A DNA stretch of 64,000 nucleotides from an uncultured Candidatus Actinomarina sp. (GTDB lineage Bacteria; Actinomycetota; Acidimicrobiia; Actinomarinales; Actinomarinaceae), in NCBI GenBank assembly GCA_902580215.1, contig CACHJT010000002.1:1789-65788 (forward strand). The letters are read 5' to 3'. The notes under the pieces were generated by a model. That model searched no databases. It was not told the DNA's origin and was given only the letters and a program-made list of their open reading frames with translations. A program made the position numbers and the translations under genes. Positions 877 to 14,795 of this stretch are shown piece by piece (within the stretch, counting starts at the first letter, position 1; each line of letters begins with the position of its first letter).

Positions 877-3117
877 CTAAACAATTGCAAAACTTTCATT
901 TGAAAAATCTATTGATAAGCTTTGTGATGTAGATATTATTGAAAAATTATTTTCACCAATACCAAGAATTGCTGGAATTCTATGTTCAGCACACCTTATT
1001 GCCATGTGAGAGTTGGGACCTCCATACTGGGTAATCAATGATTTGATTTTATAATTAAAAATCCAATCCCATCCTGGGTCTGCTGCTGGGATAACTACTA
1101 TCTTATTATCAAGGTCGTAAGGTTGGTTTGAATGATGGTCAAGTAGCAAAATTTCTCCAGAAACTGTTCCTTGTCCAATGTAATTCCCTTCTTTGCTCAT
1201 TTCCTCATATAAATAAAAATCATCGGATGACGAGATTAAGTCAGGCATTAATGTGTTTTTAAGATCTAAATTAATTGTATTTTCTTGGCTAAATTCAATA
1301 TTAAGTCTTTGAAAAAGTTCTTCATCACTTATATTTTGCTCCTCTATTTCATTTAAAATACCGTCAATTCCTTTTGTATAATAAAATTTTGAATTTTCTC
1401 TTGTTGCAATAGCAGTCTGAAACATTTCAATCCACGATGATGCTGTGTATGGAATATTGTTAAATTTAAAATATTTATCAATATTTGTAAATATAGCTTT
1501 TTGCAATGAAATATTTTCATCATGTATTTCACTATTTTGAATCAACAGCTCAGTGAACTCTAAATTATTTCTTAAATTAGATGAAGATAAATTATAGTTA
1601 CCTGCCCTAATGTGTCCATAAATGTCTAAAAAGCTATCAAGACTTTGTTTTCCAATTTTGACCTGATAAGCGTCCGCCTTCATTTTCGTACTTATCGACT
1701 TTACTGATAACAATAATGAGTTTTTATGTGCTTCGGTAATTACTTCTTTTCTCAAAAGATTATTTAATTGAGCAAAATACACAAACCCCAATCTTGAATG
1801 ATGTGTAAATGGCAATGCCATATTGTCTCTAATAAATTTTATATTTTCTTTTTTAGAGTATTCAAAATTCCCATCAAGCAAAGAGAACGCATTCAACATA
1901 GTCTTATTGTTTTTTTCTAGAGTTGATTTGTTAAAGCTATCAATATCAATTAAATCTTGATGCCATTTCTCAATCTCTTCTGACCTAATAATTTTTTTAT
2001 ATTCAATTGCGAACTCATCTTCAGAGTCAAACACATATGATGATCGAGAGATATTAAATTCAATTGAATCATGTAAATGCGGGTTTTCTTTCAATTTTTC
2101 TAATTGATGCTGTATTATTTTTTCACAGCTATCGACTTGTAAGCTTCGAGTTAAAAAACTATTTAAACTATGGTTAACATTTATGTAGGGCACATTATTG
2201 AAAAGCTCCATTAATTTAGCCGGTTTATATTTTCTATAACCAAATTCACCGCGCTGTATATTCCATGTTGAGTCTGTAAACATAAATTTATATAAGCCAA
2301 ATGCAACATTGTCAGGTTTTTTTCCAATCATTTCTGCTGGATTCATGTCCGACATATTGCTAAAAAGGTGATTTATGCCAAAACGATCATCCGTAGTATC
2401 TTTTAAAGCCTCAAATTTTTTTATATTCTGCTCAATTATTTTTTTCTCTGTAAAGATCAAATCCTTATCAACTTTTCTCTCCATCAGAGGCCGTACTTGC
2501 AAAAGCAGTGGAGAAGAATTGTTATTCAAAACCATTTCAATGTCCAAATGTTTGTTCCCAAATAAATCTTCTAATTTTGTCAAAATATTTAGATATATAG
2601 AATATTCATCATATTTTTTTGGTAACTTGTTTATTGATCTATGAACATAAAAATTTTTAATCTGATTGTACTTTCCAGATGTAACAGCATCAGTTTCTGG
2701 ACCACTATAAATTGAAAATGATCTGTAAAGAGAGTCTGTCCCAACCTTAAAAGATGTAAGCACAGATACGCTTCTTGCATTTTTTACATAATCTTGCAAA
2801 ATCACGGTCTGATTCACATCTTTTTCGTAGCTATTTAACACTTGATTCCATGATTCTTTAATATCATTTATTCTTTTCTTGCTGATTGGTCCGATGGAAA
2901 GATATTTACCTGCATTAGAAGAGCTCTCTAAGTCTTCATTAGAACTATTGCTTCTTATCATTATTTCTTCTGAAAAATCATTGAGAATCTCGTTAATATT
3001 TTCTAAATCTTTCAAAGAAAGCTCTCTAAAGTATGGAATTTCTATATCCGTATGGTTTGCTACAAACTCTAGGTTTTTAGCTTTATTACCATAATTTATT
3101 TGATCATCCATTCTCAC
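877..3117 (-). CDS. PEP-utilising/PPDK-superfamily ATP-dependent kinase resembling L-glutamine kinase Cj1418
   Basis: N-terminal IRSNSSNEDL..SNAG, central MSDMNPAEMIG, C-terminal phospho-His swivel ADPGWDWIF...YGGPNSHMAIRCAE; start may be GTG 3117 or ATG 3111. Confidence 0.75.
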   Translation of the reverse strand: MRMDDQINYGNKAKNLEFVANHTDIEIPYFRELSLKDLENINEILNDFSEEIMIRSNSSNEDLESSSNAGKYLSIGPISKKRINDIKESWNQVLNSYEKDVNQTVILQDYVKNARSVSVLTSFKVGTDSLYRSFSIYSGPETDAVTSGKYNQIKNFYVHRSINKLPKKYDEYSIYLNILTKLEDLFGNKHLDIEMVLNNNSSPLLLQVRPLMERKVDKDLIFTEKKIIEQNIKKFEALKDTTDDRFGINHLFSNMSDMNPAEMIGKKPDNVAFGLYKFMFTDSTWNIQRGEFGYRKYKPAKLMELFNNVPYINVNHSLNSFLTRSLQVDSCEKIIQHQLEKLKENPHLHDSIEFNISRSSYVFDSEDEFAIEYKKIIRSEEIEKWHQDLIDIDSFNKSTLEKNNKTMLNAFSLLDGNFEYSKKENIKFIRDNMALPFTHHSRLGFVYFAQLNNLLRKEVITEAHKNSLLLSVKSISTKMKADAYQVKIGKQSLDSFLDIYGHIRAGNYNLSSSNLRNNLEFTELLIQNSEIHDENISLQKAIFTNIDKYFKFNNIPYTASSWIEMFQTAIATRENSKFYYTKGIDGILNEIEEQNISDEELFQRLNIEFSQENTINLDLKNTLMPDLISSSDDFYLYEEMSKEGNYIGQGTVSGEILLLDHHSNQPYDLDNKIVVIPAADPGWDWIFNYKIKSLITQYGGPNSHMAIRCAEHRIPAILGIGENNFSIISTSQSLSIDFSNESFAIV

Positions 3118-4473
3118 CTATTTGTTTACTGACTCCAAAGCTACTTGAACTTTTTCAGACGGAAATTCGTAGTCAACCATCTGTCCACTCAAAAAGTTTT
3201 CATAAGCTTTCATATCAAAGTGACCATGTCCACACATTGCTGTCAATACAGCAATACTTTCAGAATTTTGGTCGGCATCTTTCACTGCCCTAATTGCTGA
3301 CGCAATTGCATGAGTTGCTTCAGGAGCAGGAACTATGCCTTCTGTTTTAGCAAATAGTTGACCAGCCTCGAAACACTCTTTTTGTCCTATTGCTTCTGCT
3401 TCGATTAATTTCTCTTCATACATTGCACTGACTAAAGGTGCCATTCCGTGGTATCTTAAACCTCCAGCATGAATTGGATCAGGCACAAAAGAATGACCAA
3501 GGGTATGCATTTTGACTACGGGGGCCATTCCTACTGAATCCCCAAAATCATATGCATACGTTCCCTTAGTCAAAGATGGACAAGCCTGTGGCTCAACAGC
3601 TCTAATAATCGTAGACTTGTTATTTTGTATATTTTCTCTAGCAAAAGGTGTAAAAAGACCGGCAAAGTTAGAACCACCGCCAGTACAGCCAACTATTACA
3701 TCTGGATAGTCGTCAGCCAGTGCCAATTGTTTTAGGGCTTCTTCTCCAATAATAGTTTGATGCATTAGGACGTGATTCAACACACTTCCTAGTGCGTATC
3801 TTGTTTTTTCATCTTTTGCTGCAACTTCAATAGCTTCTGAAATTGCAATACCAAGACTTCCAGGAGTTTCAGGGTCTTCCGAAAGAAACTTTTTACCAAT
3901 ATCTGTTCTTTCAGACGGGCTTGAATATACCTTTGCGCCGTATATTTCCATCATGGTCTTCCTGTAAGGTTTTGCTAAGTATGATGCAGCTACTTGAAAT
4001 ACCTCTAACTCAATTCCAAAAGCCTGACATGCAAAAGCCAAAGCAGAACCCCACTGACCAGCACCTGTTTCCGTAACCATTTTTGTAACACCTTCTTCCG
4101 CGTTATAAAACGCTTGGGGGATTGCAGTGTTAGGTTTATGCGAGCCAGACGGGGATCCACCTTCGTATTTGTAATATATTCTTGATTTTGTACCTAGAGC
4201 TTTTTCAAGTCGAACTGCTCTAAATAAAGGGGAAGGTCTATAAAGCTTATATAAATCTAAAACAGGCTTTGGTATATCTATAAAAGAATCTTGAGACACT
4301 TCTTGTAAAATCAAACCCATTGGAAATAAGGGAGCTAAATCCTCTGGACCAATTGGCTCCATTGTTTGCGGATTCAATGGTGGTGGTAGTGGATTTGGCA
4401 AGTCCGGAATGATGTTATACCACTGTGTTGGCATCTCAGATTCTGATAATAAAAATTTATATTGTTCGCTCAT
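3118..4473 (-). CDS. trpB2: Tryptophan synthase beta chain type 2 (TrpB2)
   Basis: PLP lysine motif GSHKPNTA, ETGAGQWG, GGGSNF, HAGGLRYHG; AGGAGG SD upstream. Confidence 0.95.
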   Translation of the reverse strand: MSEQYKFLLSESEMPTQWYNIIPDLPNPLPPPLNPQTMEPIGPEDLAPLFPMGLILQEVSQDSFIDIPKPVLDLYKLYRPSPLFRAVRLEKALGTKSRIYYKYEGGSPSGSHKPNTAIPQAFYNAEEGVTKMVTETGAGQWGSALAFACQAFGIELEVFQVAASYLAKPYRKTMMEIYGAKVYSSPSERTDIGKKFLSEDPETPGSLGIAISEAIEVAAKDEKTRYALGSVLNHVLMHQTIIGEEALKQLALADDYPDVIVGCTGGGSNFAGLFTPFARENIQNNKSTIIRAVEPQACPSLTKGTYAYDFGDSVGMAPVVKMHTLGHSFVPDPIHAGGLRYHGMAPLVSAMYEEKLIEAEAIGQKECFEAGQLFAKTEGIVPAPEATHAIASAIRAVKDADQNSESIAVLTAMCGHGHFDMKAYENFLSGQMVDYEFPSEKVQVALESVNK

Positions 4474-4488
4474 TGTTCCTCCTAAAAT

Positions 4489-4514
4489 AAAAAAACCGGG
4501 CTGTGCCCGGCTTT
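4489..4514 (-). terminator. Attenuator terminator hairpin upstream of trpB2
   Basis: Minus strand AAAGCCGGGC-ACA-GCCCGG-UUUUUUU. Confidence 0.9.
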
Positions 4515-4538
4515 ACAAAACAACATAGAACTAGGCAC

Positions 4539-4583
4539 CTACATATGTAGCGTCCACCAGTTCCAGTTTGTTACTTTATACAT
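4539..4583 (-). CDS. trpL: Trp attenuator leader peptide MYKVTNWNWWTLHM
   Basis: 14-aa ORF with three Trp codons (W-N-W-W) directly upstream of the terminator and trpB2; GUGCC after the stop is complementary to GGCAC in the terminator 5' arm and loop. Confidence 0.9.
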   Translation of the reverse strand: MYKVTNWNWWTLHM

Positions 4584-4695
4584 TGTTATTAATGTAGATG
4601 TTTTTTTTAAAATTTCAAAATTATAATTGTAAATTTTTTGTTAACAGAAAATGTCGAAATATCAATATATCCATTCATAACCTAGTATTGGGTTC

Positions 4696-5424
4696 ATGAA
4701 TAAAATAATTCACTCTATTGATTTAACAAAAATTTATGGAGAAAAAGAAACAAGTGTCACAGCGTTAGACAAAATCAATGTCGAGTTTAAAGAAAACGAA
4801 TTTACAGCAATCATGGGTCCATCTGGCTCTGGAAAGTCAACATTACTTCATTGTTTAGCAGGATTAGACAGACCAACATCTGGTCAGATATTTCTAAAAG
4901 AAGATGACATATCAACTTTAAATGATAAACAATTAACAAAAATTAGACGAGACAGCTTTGGCTTTGTATTTCAGGCTTTTAACCTAATCCCAACTTTAAC
5001 TGCTGAAGAAAACATCACATTACCAGCATCTATTGCTGGAAGAAAGCCAGATATGGACTGGGTAAAACAAGTAATTGAAACAGTAGATATAGGAGACAGG
5101 TTAACACATAGGCCCAATGAATTATCCGGTGGACAGCAACAGAGAGTAGCAGCTGCTAGAGCCATGGCTACAAAGCCTGAAGTAATTTTTGCAGACGAGC
5201 CATCAGGAAATTTAGATTCAAAATCAAGCAAAGAACTTTTAAGTTTCATGAAGTCCGTAGTTGAAGAGCTTAACCAGACAATCATTATGGTTACACACGA
5301 TCCCTACGCTGCTTCCTATGCCAATAGAGTAATAATGCTTAAAGATGGAAGAATTGCTAGTGACTTAGAACAACCAACACAAGAAGAAATTGTTGCAGAG
5401 GTTACAGCTTTAACTAACATCTGA
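4696..5424 (+). CDS. ABC transporter ATP-binding protein, LolD/MacB-like
   Basis: [27 protein letters not shown]. Confidence 0.95.
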   Translation: MNKIIHSIDLTKIYGEKETSVTALDKINVEFKENEFTAIMGPSGSGKSTLLHCLAGLDRPTSGQIFLKEDDISTLNDKQLTKIRRDSFGFVFQAFNLIPTLTAEENITLPASIAGRKPDMDWVKQVIETVDIGDRLTHRPNELSGGQQQRVAAARAMATKPEVIFADEPSGNLDSKSSKELLSFMKSVVEELNQTIIMVTHDPYAASYANRVIMLKDGRIASDLEQPTQEEIVAEVTALTNI

Positions 5425-8039
5425 TGTTTGGATTTACAAAGCGCCCCCTTTTTCTGATAGCCTGGAAAAACTTAAAAACCTATCCGGTAAGAATATTTTT
5501 AACAACATCATCGATCATTCTTGGTGTAGCAGTCATTATTGCTTCGAATATTTTTTCGGAAAGTAATAAATCTGCATTTGATAATTTATTCTCAGGCATT
5601 TACGAGGGAGTTGACTTAGTAGTACAGCCAATACAAGAGGATTTTGCCGAGGGATTTAGTGGTGATGGTGGTCAAGGGCCAATTTCGTTTGAAGTTAAGA
5701 AAATACCTGATGAAAGAATTGATGAGATTTCAAATCTACCAAGTGTAAAAGCGGCTTGGGGTGAAGTATTGGGTTTTGCTCAGTTCATAAAAATTGTAGA
5801 TGGCGAAACAGTATTAATTTCTAATGGATTTGCTCCAACATTTGGAGCTGCTTGGGATAGCAATCCATATGCAGCGCAATGGTCATTAGTTGAAGGAGAG
5901 GCTCCAACTAATACAAAAGAAGTAGTCATGGATGTTGTAACTGCAGAAAATCATGATTTTTCTGTTGGAGATAGAGTGACAGTTTTGGCTGGTGCAACTC
6001 CTGCATCATTTACAATTGTGGGAATTGCAGAGTTTGCTAATGTAGGTGCACCAGGTGGGGCAACCTTTGCATTGTTTGAATTTAGGACTGCTCAAAAATT
6101 ATTAGATTCAAGAGGCGAAGTAGATTTAATAAATGTAGTTATAGAAAATAATTTTGACATTAATGATGTTAAAACTGAAATAACAAACTTAGATTCAGAA
6201 AATTTAAATGTAATAAACGCTCAAGAAGCTGCAGCTGAACAAGCTGATTCTATCAAACAAGGCTTAGATTTTTTTAATACAATACTCAATGTATTTGCTG
6301 GTATCGCAATATTTGTTGGCGCCTTTATCATTCAAAATACATTTCGAATCCTTTTACTCCAAAGAACAAAAGAGCTTTCGCTACTTAGAGCTCTAGGTAC
6401 ATCAAAAAGACAAATTTATAGATTAGTAATTTCTGAATCTCTGTTTATGTCTGTAATTGGATCTGGTTTGGGTATTGCTCTTGGTATTGGTTTAGCTGTT
6501 GCAGTGAAAGAAGGATTGCAATATTTTGAGTTTGGACTACCAGACGGACCACTAGTTTTAACAACAGAAGCTGCAATAACAGGATTAATTATTGGAATAA
6601 CAGTTACAATTTTGTCCTCTTTACTTCCAGCTAGAAAAGCCTCTCAAGTAAGTCCAATGGAAGCCATTAGAGACAGTGTTTCAACACCTAGAAGGAAATC
6701 CTTACTTATTCGATTAGTTTTTGGTTCGCTCATTTCTGTTGCTGGGTTTGGAATGTTATTTGGTGTTTTGTACGATTTCTTAGATTTACCAACCTTGACC
6801 TCTCTACAACAAGTAGGTTTTGGTGCAGGCGTAATTTTTATTGGAATCTCTGTAATAACCCCATCGATTACAAAACCTTTTGTTTTTCTTTTTGATAAAG
6901 CTTATAACTTAGTTTTTGGAATTCTTGGTAAATTGGCTACTGAGAATTCAAAAAGAACACCAAGAAGAACTGCTTCAACAGCATCAGCTTTAATGATCGG
7001 GCTAACATTGATATCTTTGGCAAATGTTATAACGACTTCATTTAAGGCACAGGCTGAGTCCCTAATAAGTGAGGTAATACTTGCGGACTATCAAGTAAGT
7101 GCTTCTAATGTGTTTGTTTCACCTGGAATTCCGACAGGTTTATCGGAAGAGCTTCTAGAGCTAGATGAAGTAACAAAACTTTCCAGAACAAGAGCTACTG
7201 TTGTTGGCTACAACCAGCGACCACTTATTCTTGGTGCCGTTGACGAAACTGTCTTTGATCTTGTAAAAACAGACGATATATCCGGAAATAGAAAAGACTT
7301 TCTAAAAAAAGATGCAATAGGAATACTTAAACAAACAGCAGAAAGAGAAGAGCTCTTTGTAGGGGATGAGGTTGTATTAACAATTCCTGAAGAAGGAGAA
7401 AAAACTTTTACTGTCACCTATATATTTGACTGGACCACTCAACCACCGGCTGAATTTTTTGTACTTCTTGAAAATAACACTTTTTTTGCTGACGAATCAC
7501 TTGATACAGAATTGTATTTCAATGTAAATAAAAAAACTCCGGAACTAGAACAGAAAATAAACGCAATTGTTGATGAATACCCTGGCGTTGAAGTAAGAGA
7601 TGAAGATGGTTTAGTTGAAGAAGCTAACAATCAAATACAATTACTTCTTAACGTAATTTATGGATTCCTTTCCATATCTATTTTTGTAGCTCTATTTGGT
7701 ATCACAAACACACTCTCTTTATCAGTGTATGAAAGAACAAGAGAAATAGGGTTAATGAGGGCAATCGGAACTTATAGAAAACAAATACGAAGAATGATTT
7801 TTATTGAGTCTTCTATTATTTCAATATTTGGTGCAGCTCTAGGTACAGGATTAGGAATATTCTTTGCTTGGAGTTTGATTCAGACATTAGCCGATGAAGG
7901 ATTTACTGTATTTGCAGTTTCCATTCAGCAAACATTTTTGTGGATTGGTATTGCAATAATTGCGGGAGTAATTGCAGCAATACTTCCTGCTATTAGGGCA
8001 GCAAGACAAAACATACTCGAAGCTATCTCCTACGAGTAA
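5424..8039 (+). CDS. ABC transporter permease, duplicated FtsX/MacB-type
   Basis: Two repeats of QRTKELSLLRALG / ERTREIGLMRAIG with large extracellular loops; coupled to the ATPase. Confidence 0.9.
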   Translation: MFGFTKRPLFLIAWKNLKTYPVRIFLTTSSIILGVAVIIASNIFSESNKSAFDNLFSGIYEGVDLVVQPIQEDFAEGFSGDGGQGPISFEVKKIPDERIDEISNLPSVKAAWGEVLGFAQFIKIVDGETVLISNGFAPTFGAAWDSNPYAAQWSLVEGEAPTNTKEVVMDVVTAENHDFSVGDRVTVLAGATPASFTIVGIAEFANVGAPGGATFALFEFRTAQKLLDSRGEVDLINVVIENNFDINDVKTEITNLDSENLNVINAQEAAAEQADSIKQGLDFFNTILNVFAGIAIFVGAFIIQNTFRILLLQRTKELSLLRALGTSKRQIYRLVISESLFMSVIGSGLGIALGIGLAVAVKEGLQYFEFGLPDGPLVLTTEAAITGLIIGITVTILSSLLPARKASQVSPMEAIRDSVSTPRRKSLLIRLVFGSLISVAGFGMLFGVLYDFLDLPTLTSLQQVGFGAGVIFIGISVITPSITKPFVFLFDKAYNLVFGILGKLATENSKRTPRRTASTASALMIGLTLISLANVITTSFKAQAESLISEVILADYQVSASNVFVSPGIPTGLSEELLELDEVTKLSRTRATVVGYNQRPLILGAVDETVFDLVKTDDISGNRKDFLKKDAIGILKQTAEREELFVGDEVVLTIPEEGEKTFTVTYIFDWTTQPPAEFFVLLENNTFFADESLDTELYFNVNKKTPELEQKINAIVDEYPGVEVRDEDGLVEEANNQIQLLLNVIYGFLSISIFVALFGITNTLSLSVYERTREIGLMRAIGTYRKQIRRMIFIESSIISIFGAALGTGLGIFFAWSLIQTLADEGFTVFAVSIQQTFLWIGIAIIAGVIAAILPAIRAARQNILEAISYE

Positions 8040-8065
8040 ATATTTTTTAACCTTACAATATTCCT

Positions 8066-9364
8066 ATGGCTCAAGAAGAAATAGTTAAGTTATTATCTGA
8101 AATGGTAGAGATAAAATCTATCAGCTCTGACAAAAACCATAGAGATGATGTTGATGCTTCAGCACAATTTGTACAAAACTTATTTGCAGATCTGGGATTA
8201 AACACTCAAGTTATCAAGGTTGCAGGAGGAATGCCAGCTGTTGTAGCTCACACAGAAATTGACCCCTCTAAAAAAACCGTTCTTCTTTACGCTCACCATG
8301 ATGTACAACCAGTAGGGGATGTAGATTTGTGGGACACTGAACCATTTGACCCTGTAGTAAAAGATGGAAGACTTTATGGCAGAGGTTCAGGTGATAACAA
8401 ATCAGGAGTAGTTGTCCATTACAATGTTGTAAAACAACTCTTAAGCGATTTACCAGTAAATATCAAAATTTTTATTGAGGGAGAAGAAGAAATTGGATCT
8501 CCTACAATGTCAGACTTTATTGAACAGAATAGAGAAGCTTTAGAAGCTGACGTCATTGTTATTGCTGATTCAGGAAACGTAAAAATTGGCGTTCCAACTA
8601 TTACGACCACATTAAGAGGCCTAGTTGATGCAATTATTGAAGTTGATCAACCAATGAGACCGATACATTCTGGCGTTGGCGGAGGGGTTGTTCCCGATGC
8701 TTTTATGGTGTTAAGTAGAGTTATTGCCTCATTCCACAATGAAAAAGGAGAACTTATGATCGAAGGTTTAACTCCTACAGATATGCAGGTAACTGAGCTA
8801 GAAGAATCGTTTTTGAAAAAAATGCTTGGATCAGATGAAATAAACCTCTTTGATACAGAAAGTATCTCAAAAAGACTCTGGTTAGAGCCAGCATTAGATG
8901 TTCTAGCTATTGATGCACCTCCTGTTAAGGACGCAGTAAATTTAGTTATTCCTAAAGCAAGTGCAAAAATCAGTTTAAGACTTCCCCCTACTGAAGACCC
9001 AGAGCATGCTATGAAAATGCTTGAAGAGCATGTAATGAGAAACATTCCATGGAATGCTTCTGTTAAATTTATTCCAAACTCCAAAGGATCGGGTGTAGTT
9101 GCAGATCCTAATAAACCATTTACAACAGAATTAGTTAACAGTTTTAATTCAATCTGGGAAAATGAGACTGCTTACATTGGTGTTGGTGGCTCTATTCCTT
9201 TTGCAAATGATTTTGTTAGAGAGTTTCCTAATGCAGAATTGGTACTAGTTGGCGCTGCTGATGAAGAACTAGGAAATGCACATGCACCAAATGAAAGTGT
9301 CCAAATTGACCATATTGAAATGCTCATAGAAAGTCTCGTACAAACTTTAAAAAATATTTCTTAA
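8066..9364 (+). CDS. M20 family dipeptidase
   Basis: YAHHDVQP, GRGSGDNK, EGEEEIGS, AHAPNES. Confidence 0.9.
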   Translation: MAQEEIVKLLSEMVEIKSISSDKNHRDDVDASAQFVQNLFADLGLNTQVIKVAGGMPAVVAHTEIDPSKKTVLLYAHHDVQPVGDVDLWDTEPFDPVVKDGRLYGRGSGDNKSGVVVHYNVVKQLLSDLPVNIKIFIEGEEEIGSPTMSDFIEQNREALEADVIVIADSGNVKIGVPTITTTLRGLVDAIIEVDQPMRPIHSGVGGGVVPDAFMVLSRVIASFHNEKGELMIEGLTPTDMQVTELEESFLKKMLGSDEINLFDTESISKRLWLEPALDVLAIDAPPVKDAVNLVIPKASAKISLRLPPTEDPEHAMKMLEEHVMRNIPWNASVKFIPNSKGSGVVADPNKPFTTELVNSFNSIWENETAYIGVGGSIPFANDFVREFPNAELVLVGAADEELGNAHAPNESVQIDHIEMLIESLVQTLKNIS

Positions 9365-9369
9365 TTTTT

Positions 9370-10401
9370 ATGGAAATAGGTATAGATTCATTTGCAAAAA
9401 AAACTCAAACTAATGAAGGTGGTACTGTTCAGGACGATGCTCGTGCTATGTCTGAGCTAATTGAGAGAATAGTCCATGCAGACAAAGTAGGTTTAGATGT
9501 TTTTGGTCTCGGAGAACACCACAGAGAAGAGTTTTTAGACTCGGCTGCACATAATATTCTTGCAGCTGCAGCAGCAAAGACAGAAAACATTAGGCTAACC
9601 AGTGCAGTTGCTGTAATAAGCGCAATGGATCCAGTAAGGTTGTTTCAAAACTATGCAACATTAGATTTAATTTCAAATGGAAGAGCAGAGATTGTCGCGG
9701 GAAGAGGCTCATTCACAGAAGCGTTTCCTCTTTTTGGTTTAGATTTTAATGATTATGACGACCTCTATGCCGAAAAGCTTGACCTTCTGTTAAGAATTAG
9801 GGATGAAAACAAAGTTACTTGGTCTGGAAAATTTAGACCTCCTCTAGAAAATCAGACTGTGTATCCAAGACCATTGCAAGAAAAACTGCCCGTATGGGTT
9901 GGAGTTGGTGGAACACCAGCATCTTTTGTAAGAGCAGGAACTCTTGGTCTTCCTTTAATGGTTGCTGTTATAGGTGGAGAAACTCATAGATTTAGACCAC
10001 TAATTGATCTATATTATGAAGCTGCAGAAAAAGCAGGCCATGATAAAACCTCTCTAAAAGTTGGTCTTCATTCACTCGGATTTGTAGCAAACTCAAAAGA
10101 GGAAGCTATTGAAAGGTATTATCCAGGATATAGAATTTGGTTCAATCAAATTGGAAAAGAGCGTGGCTGGCCACCAGTTACTATGGAGAGGTTCGAGCAA
10201 CAAATCGGCGACTTGGGTGCATATGTTATTGGTGGACCAGAGGAAGTAGCAGAAAAATTAGTTAGACATAGTGAAGCTTTAGGAGGCTTATCTCGTTTTA
10301 CTTTTCAGATAGATAACGCAGGTCTCACACATGAAGATTTAATGGAAACTTATACATTAATTGGAGAAAAAGTAAAACCTTTAGTTTTAGACAGACTCTA
10401 A
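9370..10401 (+). CDS. Luciferase-like (LLM) flavin-dependent oxidoreductase
   Basis: GEHHR, IRLTSAV, DPVR, GRGSFTEAFPLFG. Confidence 0.9.
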   Translation: MEIGIDSFAKKTQTNEGGTVQDDARAMSELIERIVHADKVGLDVFGLGEHHREEFLDSAAHNILAAAAAKTENIRLTSAVAVISAMDPVRLFQNYATLDLISNGRAEIVAGRGSFTEAFPLFGLDFNDYDDLYAEKLDLLLRIRDENKVTWSGKFRPPLENQTVYPRPLQEKLPVWVGVGGTPASFVRAGTLGLPLMVAVIGGETHRFRPLIDLYYEAAEKAGHDKTSLKVGLHSLGFVANSKEEAIERYYPGYRIWFNQIGKERGWPPVTMERFEQQIGDLGAYVIGGPEEVAEKLVRHSEALGGLSRFTFQIDNAGLTHEDLMETYTLIGEKVKPLVLDRL

Positions 10402-11013
10402 ATAATCAGGTAGATCAATATCAGCAGAATGATTTTTATCAACTTCTGGTGTTACAAATTTAGTTTCTACAGGTACTACTCCTGACCAAATTGGAAGGGT
10501 TTTATCTGACTCTTCTTCTTTAGGCATACCAGTGCGCTGTTTTAGTGAAAATTCATCAATTGTAAATTCAAGCATTGCAGTTTGCAGCCATTCATTTTTT
10601 GTAGGCTTTCTTGCATCTTCAAACCTTCCTTTAAAAAATCTATCAACCATATTTTCAAAAGCAGCATACATAACTGTTTCATCACTAATTCTTTTAGTAT
10701 TACCAAACACAACTGCTGACTGATAATTCATAGAAGAATGGAAAAGACTTTTAGATAAAACTATTCCATGAACATCTGTTGCAGACAACGTTACATTTGA
10801 ATTATTTGACAATTCTTTAGTAATTCTTGAGCCAACAGCAGCATGAAGATAAATTTTTTCATTATAAATTGCATGTAGCATTGGAATAGAAAACACAGTT
10901 CCTTTCTGGTTAAACGACACAGTTACAAAATATGTTTTGTTCAAGAATGAAAAAAGTTCATTTAGGTCATATGAAGCACGTTCTTTTAATCTTCTTACTT
11001 TAGATTTATCCAC
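10387..11013 (-). CDS. Pyridoxamine 5'-phosphate oxidase-like flavin-binding protein (NimA-like)
   Basis: RASYD, HSSMNYQSAVVFG, W.GVVP motifs. Confidence 0.85.
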   Translation of the reverse strand: MDKSKVRRLKERASYDLNELFSFLNKTYFVTVSFNQKGTVFSIPMLHAIYNEKIYLHAAVGSRITKELSNNSNVTLSATDVHGIVLSKSLFHSSMNYQSAVVFGNTKRISDETVMYAAFENMVDRFFKGRFEDARKPTKNEWLQTAMLEFTIDEFSLKQRTGMPKEEESDKTLPIWSGVVPVETKFVTPEVDKNHSADIDLPDYLESV

Positions 11014-11166
11014 ACTTAAATAGTAAACAAATTGTTAACGGAAGCTATAAAATTTTGTATTTTTAATACATCGACAAAGTTTACTTATTAGAATTGCCTT
11101 GTAATTTAAGGAAGTTAAATTGCATCACAATTAAATAAAGGGAGCTTATGGAAGGTAGGTTAACTT

Positions 11167-11730
11167 ATGAAAAAATTTTTCACACAGCCAATTGGTGATT
11201 TAGCTCGACAAAATGCGCTAACTTTTTTAGTAATTAATTTGGTTGGTATCGGAGTCGAGTTATCAGGGTCAACAGCTTTAGATGCAGTTGATAATTTGTT
11301 TAGCTTTATATGGGGATTTTCACTAATCTCTATTATTATTGCTGGCTATTATCTTGCAGAAGGCTATGTTCCAGAATATTGGAAAATGGCAACAACTATA
11401 TTAGCTACAGTTATTATTTTTGGTACTTTTCTTGAAATTACTGAACTTGAAGATGGTTTTTTACCAATTTACTTTTTTTGGGCATTTAACTCATTAATTT
11501 ATGGATTAACTTTAAGAGGAAGTGGTATCTTTCGCCCAATTTATGAATACCTAACCATCTTTGGTGCGTTAATCATAACTATTGGAACTTCAGCAGATTT
11601 ATTTTTTGACTATGAGCTTCCAGAAGCAGTACAGATAGTAGGGCTTTTTGGATGGTTGTCTTTGGTAGTTGGAACAAGTGTAGGTAACTACTTTGCTTGG
11701 GGTGATAAAGCTGCCTCAAGCGCAGAATAA
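11167..11730 (+). CDS. Uncharacterised integral membrane protein (about 6 TM), paralog of 11748-12287
   Basis: Hydrophobic segments; shares WG.SL, VPE.W, FFDYELPEA with next ORF. Confidence 0.8.
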   Translation: MKKFFTQPIGDLARQNALTFLVINLVGIGVELSGSTALDAVDNLFSFIWGFSLISIIIAGYYLAEGYVPEYWKMATTILATVIIFGTFLEITELEDGFLPIYFFWAFNSLIYGLTLRGSGIFRPIYEYLTIFGALIITIGTSADLFFDYELPEAVQIVGLFGWLSLVVGTSVGNYFAWGDKAASSAE

Positions 11731-11747
11731 AAGAAAGGAAATAAATT

Positions 11748-12287
11748 ATGAAATCATTTTTTGCATCAACAGATAAAGAAAATGCACAACAGGCAGGTTA
11801 CTTATTTCTAATAGTTAATATTTTAGGATTTGTAACTACAGGATTAATGGGAATGGAAGCTCCTCCTGGAGAAAAATTAGTAAATTTCTTCTGGGGTTTA
11901 AGCCTAGCTGGTGTTTTTCTAACCATTAAACCATTGCTTGGTGACAATGTACCAGAAAATTGGAGAGAGGGAACAACCTTTCTTGCTGCAGCGATCTTTA
12001 CCGCTAACACTTTACTATTAGGAAGTGATGGAAATGAATTTGCTCCATTTTTCTTCTTTATATGTTTAAATATGATTGCTTTATATGCGGTATCAGAAGG
12101 TGTAATTGGTAATATTTATCGATACAGCCTCTTAGTGGGTGGAGCCATTGGAATGGTAATCTCAGGTGCTGGCGCATTTTTTGACTACGAGTTACCAGAA
12201 GCATTAATGCCGATTGGATTAGTCATTTGGCTTGCATTCATTTTAGGCCTAGGTGTTGGACCATTGCTAGCATGGCGAGATAGATAA
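11748..12287 (+). CDS. Uncharacterised integral membrane protein (about 6 TM), paralog of 11167-11730
   Basis: AGAAAGGA SD; shared motifs with the preceding ORF. Confidence 0.8.
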   Translation: MKSFFASTDKENAQQAGYLFLIVNILGFVTTGLMGMEAPPGEKLVNFFWGLSLAGVFLTIKPLLGDNVPENWREGTTFLAAAIFTANTLLLGSDGNEFAPFFFFICLNMIALYAVSEGVIGNIYRYSLLVGGAIGMVISGAGAFFDYELPEALMPIGLVIWLAFILGLGVGPLLAWRDR

Positions 12288-12928
12288 TGTATGTAAGACT
12301 AGGATTAGCTAACCCTAAAGAAGGGATGACAGAAGACGCCTTAAATTACTTTAGGGATGTAGCAATACCTGTATACGATCAAGTAAGTGGACTTCTTGGT
12401 GCTGCAGCTTGCATTAATAATGCTGGCCAGCTTATGGCATGGACTACTTGGGCGAACAATGAAGCAAAAGAAGCTGCAATGTCAGAGTTTCAACAAAACC
12501 TTTCAGGATTAGCCGATTTCATTACAGAGCCTCCAACAATACTTGAAGGGCCAATGGTTGCAGGACAACAATACATTATGGTTCCAAAAGATGGTGAAGA
12601 ACCATTTTTTGCAAGATTTGTATTAGGCGGTGGAACTCAAGAAGGTAAAACTTATGATGATGTTGCAGAGTTTATGACAAACACTGTTTATCCCGCATAT
12701 GAAAATGTTGATGGCATATTTGCTACTGCCGCATGCAAAGTTGACGACAACAGTGGTTTTAGTTTCAATTTTTGGATTAGTCATGATGCTGCACATGCAG
12801 CATCTGATGTAATTGCAGATGTTGTACAAGATGCAGTTACAAATCTAATTAAAGAAGCACCTCAAGAATTAACAGGAGAATGCAACGTTTGGAAAAACTA
12901 TGTTGATTTTCCTGTAGGAAAAATATAG
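12287..12928 (+). CDS. Tandem ABM-like (dimeric alpha/beta barrel) domain protein
   Basis: Two internal repeats of R.......P.Y..V.G.........W; paralog of 13560-14195. Confidence 0.6.
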   Translation: MYVRLGLANPKEGMTEDALNYFRDVAIPVYDQVSGLLGAAACINNAGQLMAWTTWANNEAKEAAMSEFQQNLSGLADFITEPPTILEGPMVAGQQYIMVPKDGEEPFFARFVLGGGTQEGKTYDDVAEFMTNTVYPAYENVDGIFATAACKVDDNSGFSFNFWISHDAAHAASDVIADVVQDAVTNLIKEAPQELTGECNVWKNYVDFPVGKI

Positions 12929-12938
12929 AAAGGAAATT

Positions 12939-13556
12939 ATGTTAACTAGTAAAGAAGCTCAACTTGGTAGTTTAATGGCAAGAATTGCTGCATTGGGAAC
13001 CATTGTTGTATTTGCAGTTCAAGCATTGCTTATTGGACCAGATCAGGTTGGCTATAGTACTCAGTACGGAGCTATTGTAGATATAGTTTCATTTGTTCAA
13101 ACTTTTGGAATTTTGTTTACAATTTCGTTAACTCAAAAATTATTTGGAGACAACAATCCATACTTTAGGATTGTCAGTGCAATACTATTTGTTGCTGCAG
13201 TAATTCAACTAACAGGATCACTGTCATCAACAGGTAATGCAAACAGTGTCTTTGACTCTGTTTTATCGCCAGACCAAGCAAATGCTGTTGCAAATAATGG
13301 ACAGCTTGTCACATTCCTCTTATATGGAATATGGGCCTTATGTTTAATAAGTGCTGATGTAAATAATCGTGTTCCATCGTGGGGAAGAATGTCAGGACAA
13401 GGCGCTGCTTACCTTGTGATAGCTGTTCAAATTGGAGCATTGTTTGGTTTGATACCACTAGCTGCTTTTGTTCCAGTATTCATACTTGGAGGAGTAGTTC
13501 TTTTCCCTGTTTTTGTATATGGAATAAGCATTGCATTTAGTGGAGCAGGTGAGTAG
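12939..13556 (+). CDS. Uncharacterised integral membrane protein (DUF4386-like pattern)
   Basis: About 6 TM segments, VPSWGRMSG motif, AGAAAGGA SD. Confidence 0.7.
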   Translation: MLTSKEAQLGSLMARIAALGTIVVFAVQALLIGPDQVGYSTQYGAIVDIVSFVQTFGILFTISLTQKLFGDNNPYFRIVSAILFVAAVIQLTGSLSSTGNANSVFDSVLSPDQANAVANNGQLVTFLLYGIWALCLISADVNNRVPSWGRMSGQGAAYLVIAVQIGALFGLIPLAAFVPVFILGGVVLFPVFVYGISIAFSGAGE

Positions 13557-13559
13557 ATC

Positions 13560-14195
13560 GTGTATTTTAGAATAACAATACCTTCTCTACAAGACGGAAA
13601 AAAAGATGAAGCAATTTCTTTTGTTAAAGAAAATGTAATGCCAGAGTTTGATGGCACACCTGGACTTCTAACAATGATGGCAGCTATTACAGGTGAGACT
13701 TCTGGTATTAATATGGCTGCTTATGAAAGTAAAGAAGCTGTAGAAGCAGTAGAAGAAAAAATACAAGGAGTATTGTCAGAAGCAGCTGGCATGATGGCAG
13801 CACCTCCTGTAGTTTACCAAGGTGATGCAGTTTACGGCAAGGTCTACCAGACCATGGCCAAAGAAAGCACAAGACCAAGCTATTTAAGGCTGGTTGTTGG
13901 TGTTGCGAAAGACACAGATGCAGTCTTAAGCTTTCTCAAAGAAAAAGTGGAACCAATCTATGAAGAGTCAGAAGGCCTTCAAGTAACAGGAGCTATTTTT
14001 GATGGAAGCAGCGCAATTAGCTGGAACTTTTGGGATTCTGAAGAGGACATGAATTCAGCTGTTGAAAAACTACAAGCAGTGTTGGACAGCGAATCAGAGA
14101 CCGAACTGTTTGATGGAAGCACTATAGCGTATATGGGACCTGTTTATGCAGGCAAGTTGTTTATAGATTTTAATGAAGGAGACACTCCAACATAA
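13560..14195 (+). CDS. Tandem ABM-like domain protein, paralog of 12287-12928
   Basis: VMPEFDGTPGL / VEPIYEESEGL repeats, WNFWDSEED; GTG start. Confidence 0.6.
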   Translation: MYFRITIPSLQDGKKDEAISFVKENVMPEFDGTPGLLTMMAAITGETSGINMAAYESKEAVEAVEEKIQGVLSEAAGMMAAPPVVYQGDAVYGKVYQTMAKESTRPSYLRLVVGVAKDTDAVLSFLKEKVEPIYEESEGLQVTGAIFDGSSAISWNFWDSEEDMNSAVEKLQAVLDSESETELFDGSTIAYMGPVYAGKLFIDFNEGDTPT

Positions 14196-14220
14196 ATCTT
14201 TGTGAATAGATAACGCATAG

Positions 14221-14256
14221 AAAAAAAGGGATTTTTAAAAAAAATCCCTTTTTTTT
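14221..14256. terminator. Intrinsic terminator closing the five-gene operon
   Basis: AAAAAAAGGGATTTTT...AAAAATCCCTTTTTTTT inverted repeat with T tail. Confidence 0.85.
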
Positions 14257-14282
14257 ATATTGAAAATATTTAGCATATTTCT

Positions 14283-14408
14283 ATGTTTAGAAAAATAACT
14301 CCAACAAGAGTGATTTTAATTTTACTGCTTTTGTACATACTTTTTTCAGAAGATGATACGGCAAGAAGATTTAAACAACTTCCTGAACTATTGTTAAATT
14401 ATTTTTAA
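14283..14408 (+). CDS. Small (41 aa) single-TM membrane protein MFRKITPTRVILILLLLYILFSEDDTARRFKQLPELLLNYF
   Basis: Open frame, hydrophobic core, TAGCAT -10 element 6 nt before the ATG (leaderless pattern). Confidence 0.55.
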   Translation: MFRKITPTRVILILLLLYILFSEDDTARRFKQLPELLLNYF

Positions 14409-14417
14409 AATGAATTT

Positions 14418-14795
14418 ATGAATCTTAAAGATTTCACTGGTGTTGAATATATAAATCTTATAACTTATAAAAGAGATAAAACACCTATCACAACTCCAGT
14501 ATGGGTTGCAGATTTTTCTAATTCACTAGTTATAACAACAAGTCAAAATGCAGGAAAAGTGAAGAGGGTTAGAAACAATGGCCAAGCAACAATTTACATT
14601 ACTAACCAAAGTGGTTCTAAAAAGCTATCAGAAAGCATAGACTTAAAAGCATCACTCATAGAGGATGTAGATCTAAAAAAGCAGGCTGCAGATTTAATTA
14701 GAAAAAAATATGGAATGATGGCAAAAATGATTATGAAAGGACCCGATGAAAATAGGGCAATTATCAGATTAGAAGAAAAGGGAGGTGAAAAATGA
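14418..14795 (+). CDS. PPOX-class F420-dependent oxidoreductase
   Basis: YINLITYKRD...TPVW, GKVKRVRNN. Confidence 0.85.
   Translation: MNLKDFTGVEYINLITYKRDKTPITTPVWVADFSNSLVITTSQNAGKVKRVRNNGQATIYITNQSGSKKLSESIDLKASLIEDVDLKKQAADLIRKKYGMMAKMIMKGPDENRAIIRLEEKGGEK

Follow-up and report, generated by a model that had tools for sequence, protein, structure and literature searches.

The five genes at positions 11167-14195 of the stretch analysed here (64,000 nucleotides from an uncultured Candidatus Actinomarina sp., GenBank assembly GCA_902580215.1, contig CACHJT010000002.1, positions 1,789 to 65,788, hereafter termed the window) form an operon that is one configuration of a lineage-specific gene array, fixed in position and variable in composition. 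The array is built from three protein families, which we designated A (O1/O2 type), B (O4 type) and C (O3/O5 type), so that the order in the window is A-A-C-B-C. Members of Candidatus Actinomarina are among the smallest and most abundant free-living bacteria in the ocean. The five genes, as obtained from the open reading frame (ORF) listing with translation table 11, are the following, where ABM stands for antibiotic biosynthesis monooxygenase.

11167-11730, + strand: O1, family A (subfamily A1), predicted six-helix membrane protein of 187 amino acids
11748-12287, + strand: O2, family A (subfamily A2), paralog of O1, 179 amino acids
12287-12928, + strand: O3, family C (subfamily C2), predicted cytoplasmic fused double ABM-like barrel, 213 amino acids
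12939-13556, + strand: O4, family B (subfamily B1), predicted six-segment membrane protein, 205 amino acids
13560-14195, + strand: O5, family C (subfamily C1), paralog of O3, 211 amino acids, GTG start

The genes are closely packed, with intergenic distances of 17, -1, 10 and 3 nt from O1 to O5; the stop codon of O2 overlaps the ATG of O3, and the Shine-Dalgarno site AGAAAGGA was found 5' of O2 and of O4. BLASTP comparisons identified O1 and O2 (34% identity, E 3e-28) as well as O3 and O5 (27% identity, E 6e-25) as paralogs. The ratios of nonsynonymous to synonymous substitution rates (dN/dS) with respect to orthologs were between 0.06 and 0.25 for O1-O5 and between 0.035 and 0.17 for two flank genes, values that are rough because dS was mostly above 1 and hence saturated. 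O1-O5 are real genes on which purifying selection acts, and they constitute a single operon, as seen from the common strand, the short gaps, the leader, the terminator and the RNA-library contigs that extend over all junctions. The layout described in an initial annotation of this DNA, namely five tightly spaced same-strand ORFs closed by a strong terminator (gaps of -1 to 17 nt, 17-bp stem), Shine-Dalgarno sites before two of the genes and two pairs of paralogs, was thereby borne out.

The composition of the array in relatives was derived from 48 loci, retrieved by a pattern scan with the C1-subfamily alignment over one genome per species (185,579 species), the reach of which is limited to close relatives. 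The ORFs at these loci were typed with family hidden Markov models, and the array site was defined as the interval between an M20 peptidase/LLM gene and a PPOX gene. Fully bounded arrays were present at 15 loci and in the window, and these 16 arrays displayed 8 architectures:

A-A-C-B-C: 4 of the 16 bounded arrays, including the window
A-B-C-B-C: 3 of 16
B-C: 3 of 16 (L081, L082 and L087)
A-A-C-B-B-C: 2 of 16
A-A-A-C-B-B-C: 1 of 16
A-B-C-B-C-C: 1 of 16
A-C-B-B-C-C: 1 of 16
A-A-A-B-C: 1 of 16

Copy numbers per array in related genomes ranged from 0 to 3 for A, from 1 to 2 for B and from 1 to 4 for C, and 20 loci taken from genomes of the genus varied at the same site as well. Where A genes are present they stand first, and a C gene stands last, adjoining PPOX. 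According to a hand count, an adjacent B-C or C-B pair occurred in 44 of the 48 loci; a second hand count, over 25 loci with 34 C genes in all, showed a B gene next to 29 of these and an A or B gene immediately upstream of 26. The families also co-occur at a second site, between panB and msrA, which harbored C-B in 12 loci (10 of them with both flanks), B-C-B in one and C alone in two. The smallest recurring unit is one B gene beside one C gene, and the O5-type C1 is the most widely kept C copy, with the 48 related loci spread across species records.

Clustering at 50% identity resulted in 8 A, 8 B and 5 C subfamilies, and the window corresponds to A1-A2-C2-B1-C1. The array varies even within a single genomospecies, since the five records assigned to G2.6 in Table S1 of PMC7771536 have three architectures (L058 and L063; L062; L066 and L068). 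By the listing in the same table, the panB..msrA pair is found in G1 records, the G3.1 record (L087) carries B-C only, and G4 records carry 3 to 6 genes; arrays in named records ranged from 2 genes (G3.1) to 7 or more (surface genera G1 and G2). PMC7771536 places genomospecies G3.1 at high latitudes. A relation of array size to depth or latitude clade is a lead only, as a G4.1 record has six genes and the sample is small and phylogenetically confounded. A comparison of positions 5424-14795 with L018 (genome G023) revealed 95-97% identity for FtsX, M20, LLM and the Nim-like gene, 82% for O1, and 66-67% for O3 and PPOX. Because of this fall in identity, a recombination break point can be placed inside the array or at its start.

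Two loci contained irregular stretches. In L052 (G010), about 4 kb (~2600-6800) without any ORF of at least 70 amino acids follow a truncated LLM gene of 99% identity, and this region includes a family-B relic with 8-10 stops as well as PPOX and S9 peptidase fragments of 35-38% identity; it could be a decayed locus or the product of poor assembly. In L023 (G016), a gap of ~550 nt (~5165-5724) without a family gene separates B from the last C and may be a decayed cassette.

Expression in the sea was assessed with public sequencing runs. Parts of the stretch were present in 20 of them, 10 of which are recorded as RNA, and contigs from four of the RNA libraries, each belonging to a different study, were compared with the locus. 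These contigs cover positions 11070-14300 and bridge all four gene junctions: O1/O2 (X3 record 19), O2/O3 (X1 record 3), O3/O4 (X1 record 5 and X8 record 28) and O4/O5 (X1 record 5, X3 record 21, X8 record 30 and X10 record 11). The bins at 10608-11069 were empty in all four RNA runs, and in all four cover dropped after 14150-14303, to near zero past 14304; the empty bins on both sides are suggestive of transcript ends. Loose contig ends coincide exactly with 12287 and 12927, both of them gene borders, where they lead into alternative upstream genes that, in our reading of the sequences, resemble the family-A and family-B variants of G007.

These data bear directly on the heteromeric complex suggested by the initial annotation, taken here as a fixed complex of which the paralog pairs O1-O2 and O3-O5 and the O4 protein are obligate subunits. 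The retention of both pairs under purifying selection and the recurrence of A-A-C-B-C in 4 of 16 bounded arrays are in line with it. However, the other 12 arrays have different stoichiometries, among them B-C without A, subfamilies are exchanged gene by gene, the RNA contigs branch into alternative upstream genes at 12287 and 12927, and one genome of the genus has none of the three families. The synteny survey found copy number and order to change between close relatives, so that the five genes are not conserved as a set. We consider such a complex highly improbable and do not find this part of the annotation supported.

The array site can also be taken by unrelated genes. The single-contig genome G009, which belongs to the same genus, is without A, B and C altogether. 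In G009 (L053, 1411-4704) and in G017 (L054, 1643-4972) a PutA protein of 1097-1109 amino acids (Pro_dh and Aldedh domains) is encoded between M20/LLM and PPOX. The order at the site in G017 is M20-PutA-B-acyltransferase-PPOX, with an Acyl_transf_3 gene at 5680-6771 of L054, and its A and C genes lie elsewhere. Because PutA and the acyltransferase occupy the array position, the site is a general small hotspot of gene gain and loss. The array site has the same flanks and different content in close relatives, as do flexible islands and cassette hotspots.

Such turnover could reflect frequency-dependent selection on a population-variable array, in which phages would target the exposed membrane proteins, or these would serve in exclusion or immunity, with the C proteins as their cytoplasmic partners, and diversity would be maintained as it is in flexible genomic islands. 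The three architectures among five G2.6 records, the relative with a left flank of 97% and a right flank of 66% identity, the entry of PutA and the acyltransferase in G009 and G017, and the predicted acidity of the outer loops are all consistent with this view. On the other hand, PADLOC models gave no match at E<=0.001 (the best values were 0.0043 for O4 with PDC-M39A and 0.042 for O1 with ZorA, with none for O2, O3 and O5), and 129 pattern matches for family C in viral contigs included 0 relatives. Neither toxin nor integrase nor tRNA genes were seen beside the array among the annotated ORFs, the ortholog rates (dN/dS 0.06-0.25) are near those of flank genes, and the cytoplasmic C genes are as variable as the membrane genes. 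We regard a role of this kind as quite unlikely.

The families have a narrow range. Matches to O3 were detected in 19 of the 23 further genomes searched within the genus and in none of the 16 from other genera of the class. The A and B profiles had no match among 300 further genomes of the phylum, which span 199 genera. All 48 loci from the C1 scan bear the titles Candidatus Actinomarina, OCS155, Actinomarinales or unclassified marine Acidimicrobiia/Actinomycetota, and homology searches with the window proteins retrieved close marine relatives only, none of which had an informative name. Among the records searched, families A, B and C are restricted to the Actinomarina lineage. A protein 83% identical to O1 (P0094) is labelled at NCBI as 'MAG: ... 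Hellea sp.', which is an alphaproteobacterium; in view of the otherwise lineage-restricted distribution, this is probably a binning error.

It is conceivable that the genes have no joint function and that unrelated orphan membrane and ABM genes merely gather at a recombination hotspot. Unrelated genes do enter the site, C stands alone at some loci, and in G017 the A, B and C genes are scattered. Yet the families occur together at a second site as well, B and C are paired in 44 of 48 loci, all three are jointly missing in G009 and share the same narrow lineage range, and neighbouring start and stop codons overlap or are almost contiguous. A lack of joint function is very unlikely in our view.

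A hydropathy scan detected about six membrane segments each in O1, O2 and O4 and none in O3 and O5, which upholds the description of O4 as a third six-segment membrane protein and suggests that O3 and O5 are cytoplasmic. The AlphaFold2 model of O1, based on a 96-sequence alignment, contains six long helices (predicted local distance difference test, pLDDT, 90.4). No significant BLASTP match was obtained for O4 with O1 or O2, and a profile-profile comparison of family B with family A gave a probability of 68-71% (E ~4e-5) over 133-166 columns, which is suggestive of a distant relationship between the O4 and the O1/O2 families. The A and B proteins are predicted to be small inner-membrane proteins. 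According to the positive-inside rule, both of their termini would lie inside and their outer loops would be strongly acidic; the VPE.W, RG.G and AW.DK motifs of family A would then be cytoplasmic and FFDYE.PE would face outward.

Databases of known families and folds offered little for these membrane proteins. None of O1-O5 reached a Pfam or NCBIfam cut-off, with no NCBIfam match of any kind, and a Pfam scan of 21 A and 18 B members at E<=10 returned scattered, inconsistent weak matches only. A Foldseek search with the O1 model gave nothing at E<=0.001; the best rows were SatP (E 0.12, template modelling, TM, score 0.46-0.53) and UreI (TM ~0.5), and all channel rows were within E 0.12-0.85 and TM 0.41-0.54. 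A wide VIA search with O1, which is independent of Foldseek, listed only generic helical bundles, mostly G-protein-coupled receptors, at Z 8.6-11.3, below the VIA caution line of Z ~13 for helical bundles. DUF4386 (PF14329), a protein-atlas lead for A and B (0.86 for O1, 0.90 for O4), was rejected, as no match in the genome was obtained at E<=10 and hhalign comparisons with 16 true members gave probabilities of 9.3% (B) and 4.9% (A).

The soluble family can be placed in a known superfamily. The AlphaFold2 model of O3, built on an alignment of 30 family C members (pLDDT 92.5, predicted TM score 0.88), consists of two beta-alpha-beta-beta-alpha-beta halves, and the N-half and C-half profiles of O3/O5 are homologous with 99.5% probability (E 1.2e-22, 101 columns, hhalign). 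Against the Protein Data Bank (PDB), Foldseek gave 157 matches at E<=0.001 with tandem ABM-type entries on top (3mcs_B, E 4.4e-10, TM 0.78, followed by 3f44, TM 0.74), and further matches included the anthrone-oxidase-like 5f9p (TM 0.68), PenE, sulfur oxygenase reductases and chlorite-dismutase/coproheme-decarboxylase proteins, with identities of 7-13% throughout. The two internal ABM-like repeats recognised in the initial annotation are confirmed by these results. At the sequence level, O3 matched the Pfam ABM family PF03992 with 13.7 bits (E 0.073), below the 23.1-bit gathering cut-off, and O5 had no match to PF03992 at E<=1. A search of 1.84 billion representatives with the family C profile retrieved 686 proteins at E<=1e-3 and 15 at E<=1e-30, and PF03992 is listed for 29 of the 47 more distant matches scanned, which links family C to the ABM superfamily transitively. 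Run against PDB sequences, the same profile yielded nothing beyond designed TPR proteins, an artefact of a short motif, and ABM entries at E 0.13-0.9. On the basis of the modelled fold and the profile links, O3 and O5 are placed in the ABM superfamily as a divergent branch with fused domains.

Some relatives of family C are considerably longer, with 350-934 amino acids, 3-7 tandem ABM-like repeats and an N-terminal hydrophobic segment (P0197 with 934 amino acids, P0229, P0205, P0207 and others; family C profile E 1e-41 to 1e-15). With their signal-peptide-like N terminus they look like secreted multi-barrel proteins.

As to function, we tentatively favor the view, which we hold to be plausible though somewhat short of probable, that B and C, with A as an accessory, form a membrane/cytosol module for a small hydrophobic or amphipathic molecule. 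The two parts of this module would be B and C, and A would serve as an additional membrane partner or in place of B; the membrane protein would conduct, anchor or present the molecule, and on the cytoplasmic side the C barrel would bind it or carry out a cofactor-free modification. Additional paralogs might broaden or tune the range of molecules. Several observations weigh against this proposal. The proposed contact between B and C is deduced from gene adjacency, and their pairing is loose, as B2 precedes C1, C3 and C5 and C1 follows B1, B2, B6 and B8, which is unlike the expectation for strict cognate partners. C stands alone at L079, L092, L093 and L096, and A, B and C are on three separate contigs in G017. 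No structure was convincingly related to the O1 model, and a conduit role for A/B is a guess because the structural matches of O1 are non-significant. The only residues invariant in the 30 family C members are G35, P83, G88, G143, W163 and G197, with no invariant His, Asn or Tyr among them, so that a catalytic residue is not evident. In addition, assembled contigs cannot prove a single transcript, its ends or its levels, and RNA libraries may contain DNA.

Ferredoxin-fold PII proteins such as GlnK, which acts on AmtB, and SbtB, which acts on SbtA, are encoded beside channel genes. By analogy, A and B might be small-solute channels that are gated by cytoplasmic C proteins acting as sensors and regulatory plugs. 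Here, too, membrane and soluble genes adjoin and are tightly packed, the best O1 matches, although weak, are six-helix channels (SatP and UreI), and family C lacks conserved catalytic residues. The channel matches are nevertheless non-significant (E 0.12 or worse), the listed O3 Foldseek rows are monooxygenase-like, sulfur oxygenase reductase and chlorite-dismutase-type proteins with no PII protein among them, and the loose pairing of B and C subfamilies fits a specific gate poorly. We judge gating of this type to be unlikely.

A more specific form of the B-C module can be envisaged, in which the six-helix protein would hand a light- or oxygen-damaged lipophile (quinone, carotenoid or lipid) to a cofactor-free ABM oxygenase or binder. 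B-C would then be a two-component system not seen before and confined to one of the most abundant bacteria of the surface ocean, which the genus would expand and reshuffle as a tunable toolkit. This is a long shot, but if it proved true, it would open a new class of ABM chemistry, coupled to the membrane and provided with a dedicated structured leader RNA.

The leader and the end of the operon contain the following features.

11089-11094, + strand: putative promoter -10-like box TAGAAT, read from the sequence and kept in the 18-leader alignment
11100-11124, + strand: leader hairpin 1, predicted 10-bp stem with GGAAG loop (11110-11114), from the minimum free energy fold; RNAalifold gave the same stem
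11143-11161, + strand: leader hairpin 2, predicted 7-bp stem with the Shine-Dalgarno sequence GGAAG(G) (11150-11154) in its loop, from the fold
14220-14256, + strand: intrinsic-terminator-like hairpin, symmetric, preceded by an A run and followed by a T run, from the inverted repeat and fold

The spacer 5' of O1 comprises 153 nt, which is long for this genome; the median spacer in Actinomarina genomes is given as 2-3 bp in PMC7771536. The -10-like box is TG-extended or TATAAT in relatives and is located 5 nt upstream of hairpin 1. A generic promoter scan returned 7 sites, compared with 16.5 in shuffled sequences, and did not list the TAGAAT box. The fold of 11098-11169 has an energy of -15.5 kcal/mol (z -3.45), equalled by 0 of 200 shuffles. 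Across 18 leaders, 94.4% of the hairpin 1 cells were paired as compared with 80.6% after shuffling (0 of 500 reached this value), with 30-40% slid, and 6 of the 10 pairs had changed on both sides with the loop kept; since most double changes came from three related sequences, the independent covariation events are few. Hairpin 2 lies 6 nt before the O1 start, and its core columns are invariant in the 18 leaders. The presence of G-U pairs in hairpin 1 favors an RNA on the + strand, and a DNA operator appears the less favored alternative. With up to 3 mismatches allowed, hairpin 1 had no second copy in the genome, and an Rfam scan of 10900-14500 at E<=1 gave no match to the leader and two chance-level rows on the terminator. 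Hairpin 1 is probably located at the 5' end of the mRNA, and a 5'-terminal hairpin followed by a loop-exposed Shine-Dalgarno sequence would yield a stable, well-translated mRNA. The terminator contains a perfect 16-nt inverted repeat (14221-14236/14240-14255) and forms a predicted 17-bp stem of -17.1 kcal/mol.

On its 5' side the array is flanked by an LLM monooxygenase gene (TIGR03858, 485 bits) and a Pyridox_ox_2/Nim-like gene (10387-11013, - strand, E 2.7e-27), which lies tail to tail with the LLM gene and overlaps its stop by 15 nt. A PPOX-class F420 gene (TIGR03666, E 4e-21, under the family cut-off) follows on the 3' side. The flavin/F420 neighborhood that the initial annotation had described is hence present in the window but is not constant, as the Nim-like gene, and sometimes the LLM gene, is missing in relatives. 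The Nim-like gene is itself variable, because it is found beside the array only in some relatives (L018, L053 and L101). An AT-rich spacer of ~160 nt (14256-14417) extends from the terminator to PPOX and contains two weak promoter-like sites (14234-14261 and 14260-14287); PPOX is probably a separate transcription unit.

Actinomarina genomes retain few paralogs, ~44 per genome according to PMC7771536, and because this locus nevertheless consists entirely of paralogs of three lineage-specific families, the array is very unlikely to be idle. Its transcription in the sea and its reshuffling within one genomospecies strengthen this argument. Two orphan membrane families and a divergent ABM branch thereby gain a testable context, which consists of the B-C pairing, the leader RNA and G009-type variants.

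Characterised ABM enzymes, such as ActVA-Orf6, YgiN and IsdG/MhuD, are mostly single domains that form homodimers and have defined catalytic residues, which in the IsdG type are Asn, Trp and His. Family C has the domain fold of the ABM family (PF03992) in common with them, but differs in being fused, in having only Gly, Pro and Trp residues invariant and in being encoded in arrays with membrane proteins. The single-chain tandem ABM 'putative monooxygenases' 3mcs (FN1347 of Fusobacterium nucleatum) and 3f44 (Lactobacillus acidophilus), both from structural genomics, and the anthrone-oxidase-like 5f9p share the fused double barrel with O3 over the full length, but their identity to O3 is only 7-13% and their function is 'putative' according to the entry titles. 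To our knowledge, proteins of the 3mcs/3f44/5f9p type have not been paired with a membrane protein. The SatP/AceTr and UreI channels resemble O1 in size (~180-190 amino acids) and in their six helices, but matched it only at E 0.12-0.85, had no Pfam match in 21 A and 18 B members and were outside the VIA top 50. A full-text literature search never found 'Actinomarina' together with 'antibiotic biosynthesis monooxygenase', and tandem ABM terms returned nothing relevant. Pfam, NCBIfam, PADLOC and solved structures gave no match that explains A or B. The statement of the initial annotation that no described system has this architecture still stands.

The closest parallel for the array as a genetic element is provided by the flexible genomic island fGI1 of Actinomarinales (PMC7771536) and the hypervariable region reported in bioRxiv 10.64898/2026.04.03.716425 ('Actinomarina, resolved'), both of them in streamlined marine bacteria, which, in the parts of these sources concerned with them, likewise have a fixed position and variable content. 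The passages of both sources that treat the glycotype island and the hypervariable region do not mention the array. In contrast to the flexible islands, the array measures 1-5 kb, has no bounding tRNA among the ORFs seen and consists of three recurring families instead of glycosylation genes. The system corresponds to nothing described so far, its soluble part adds a new branch to a known superfamily, and the array represents a small, well-bounded case in which cassettes are exchanged gene by gene, within a genome that is said to be without mobile elements.

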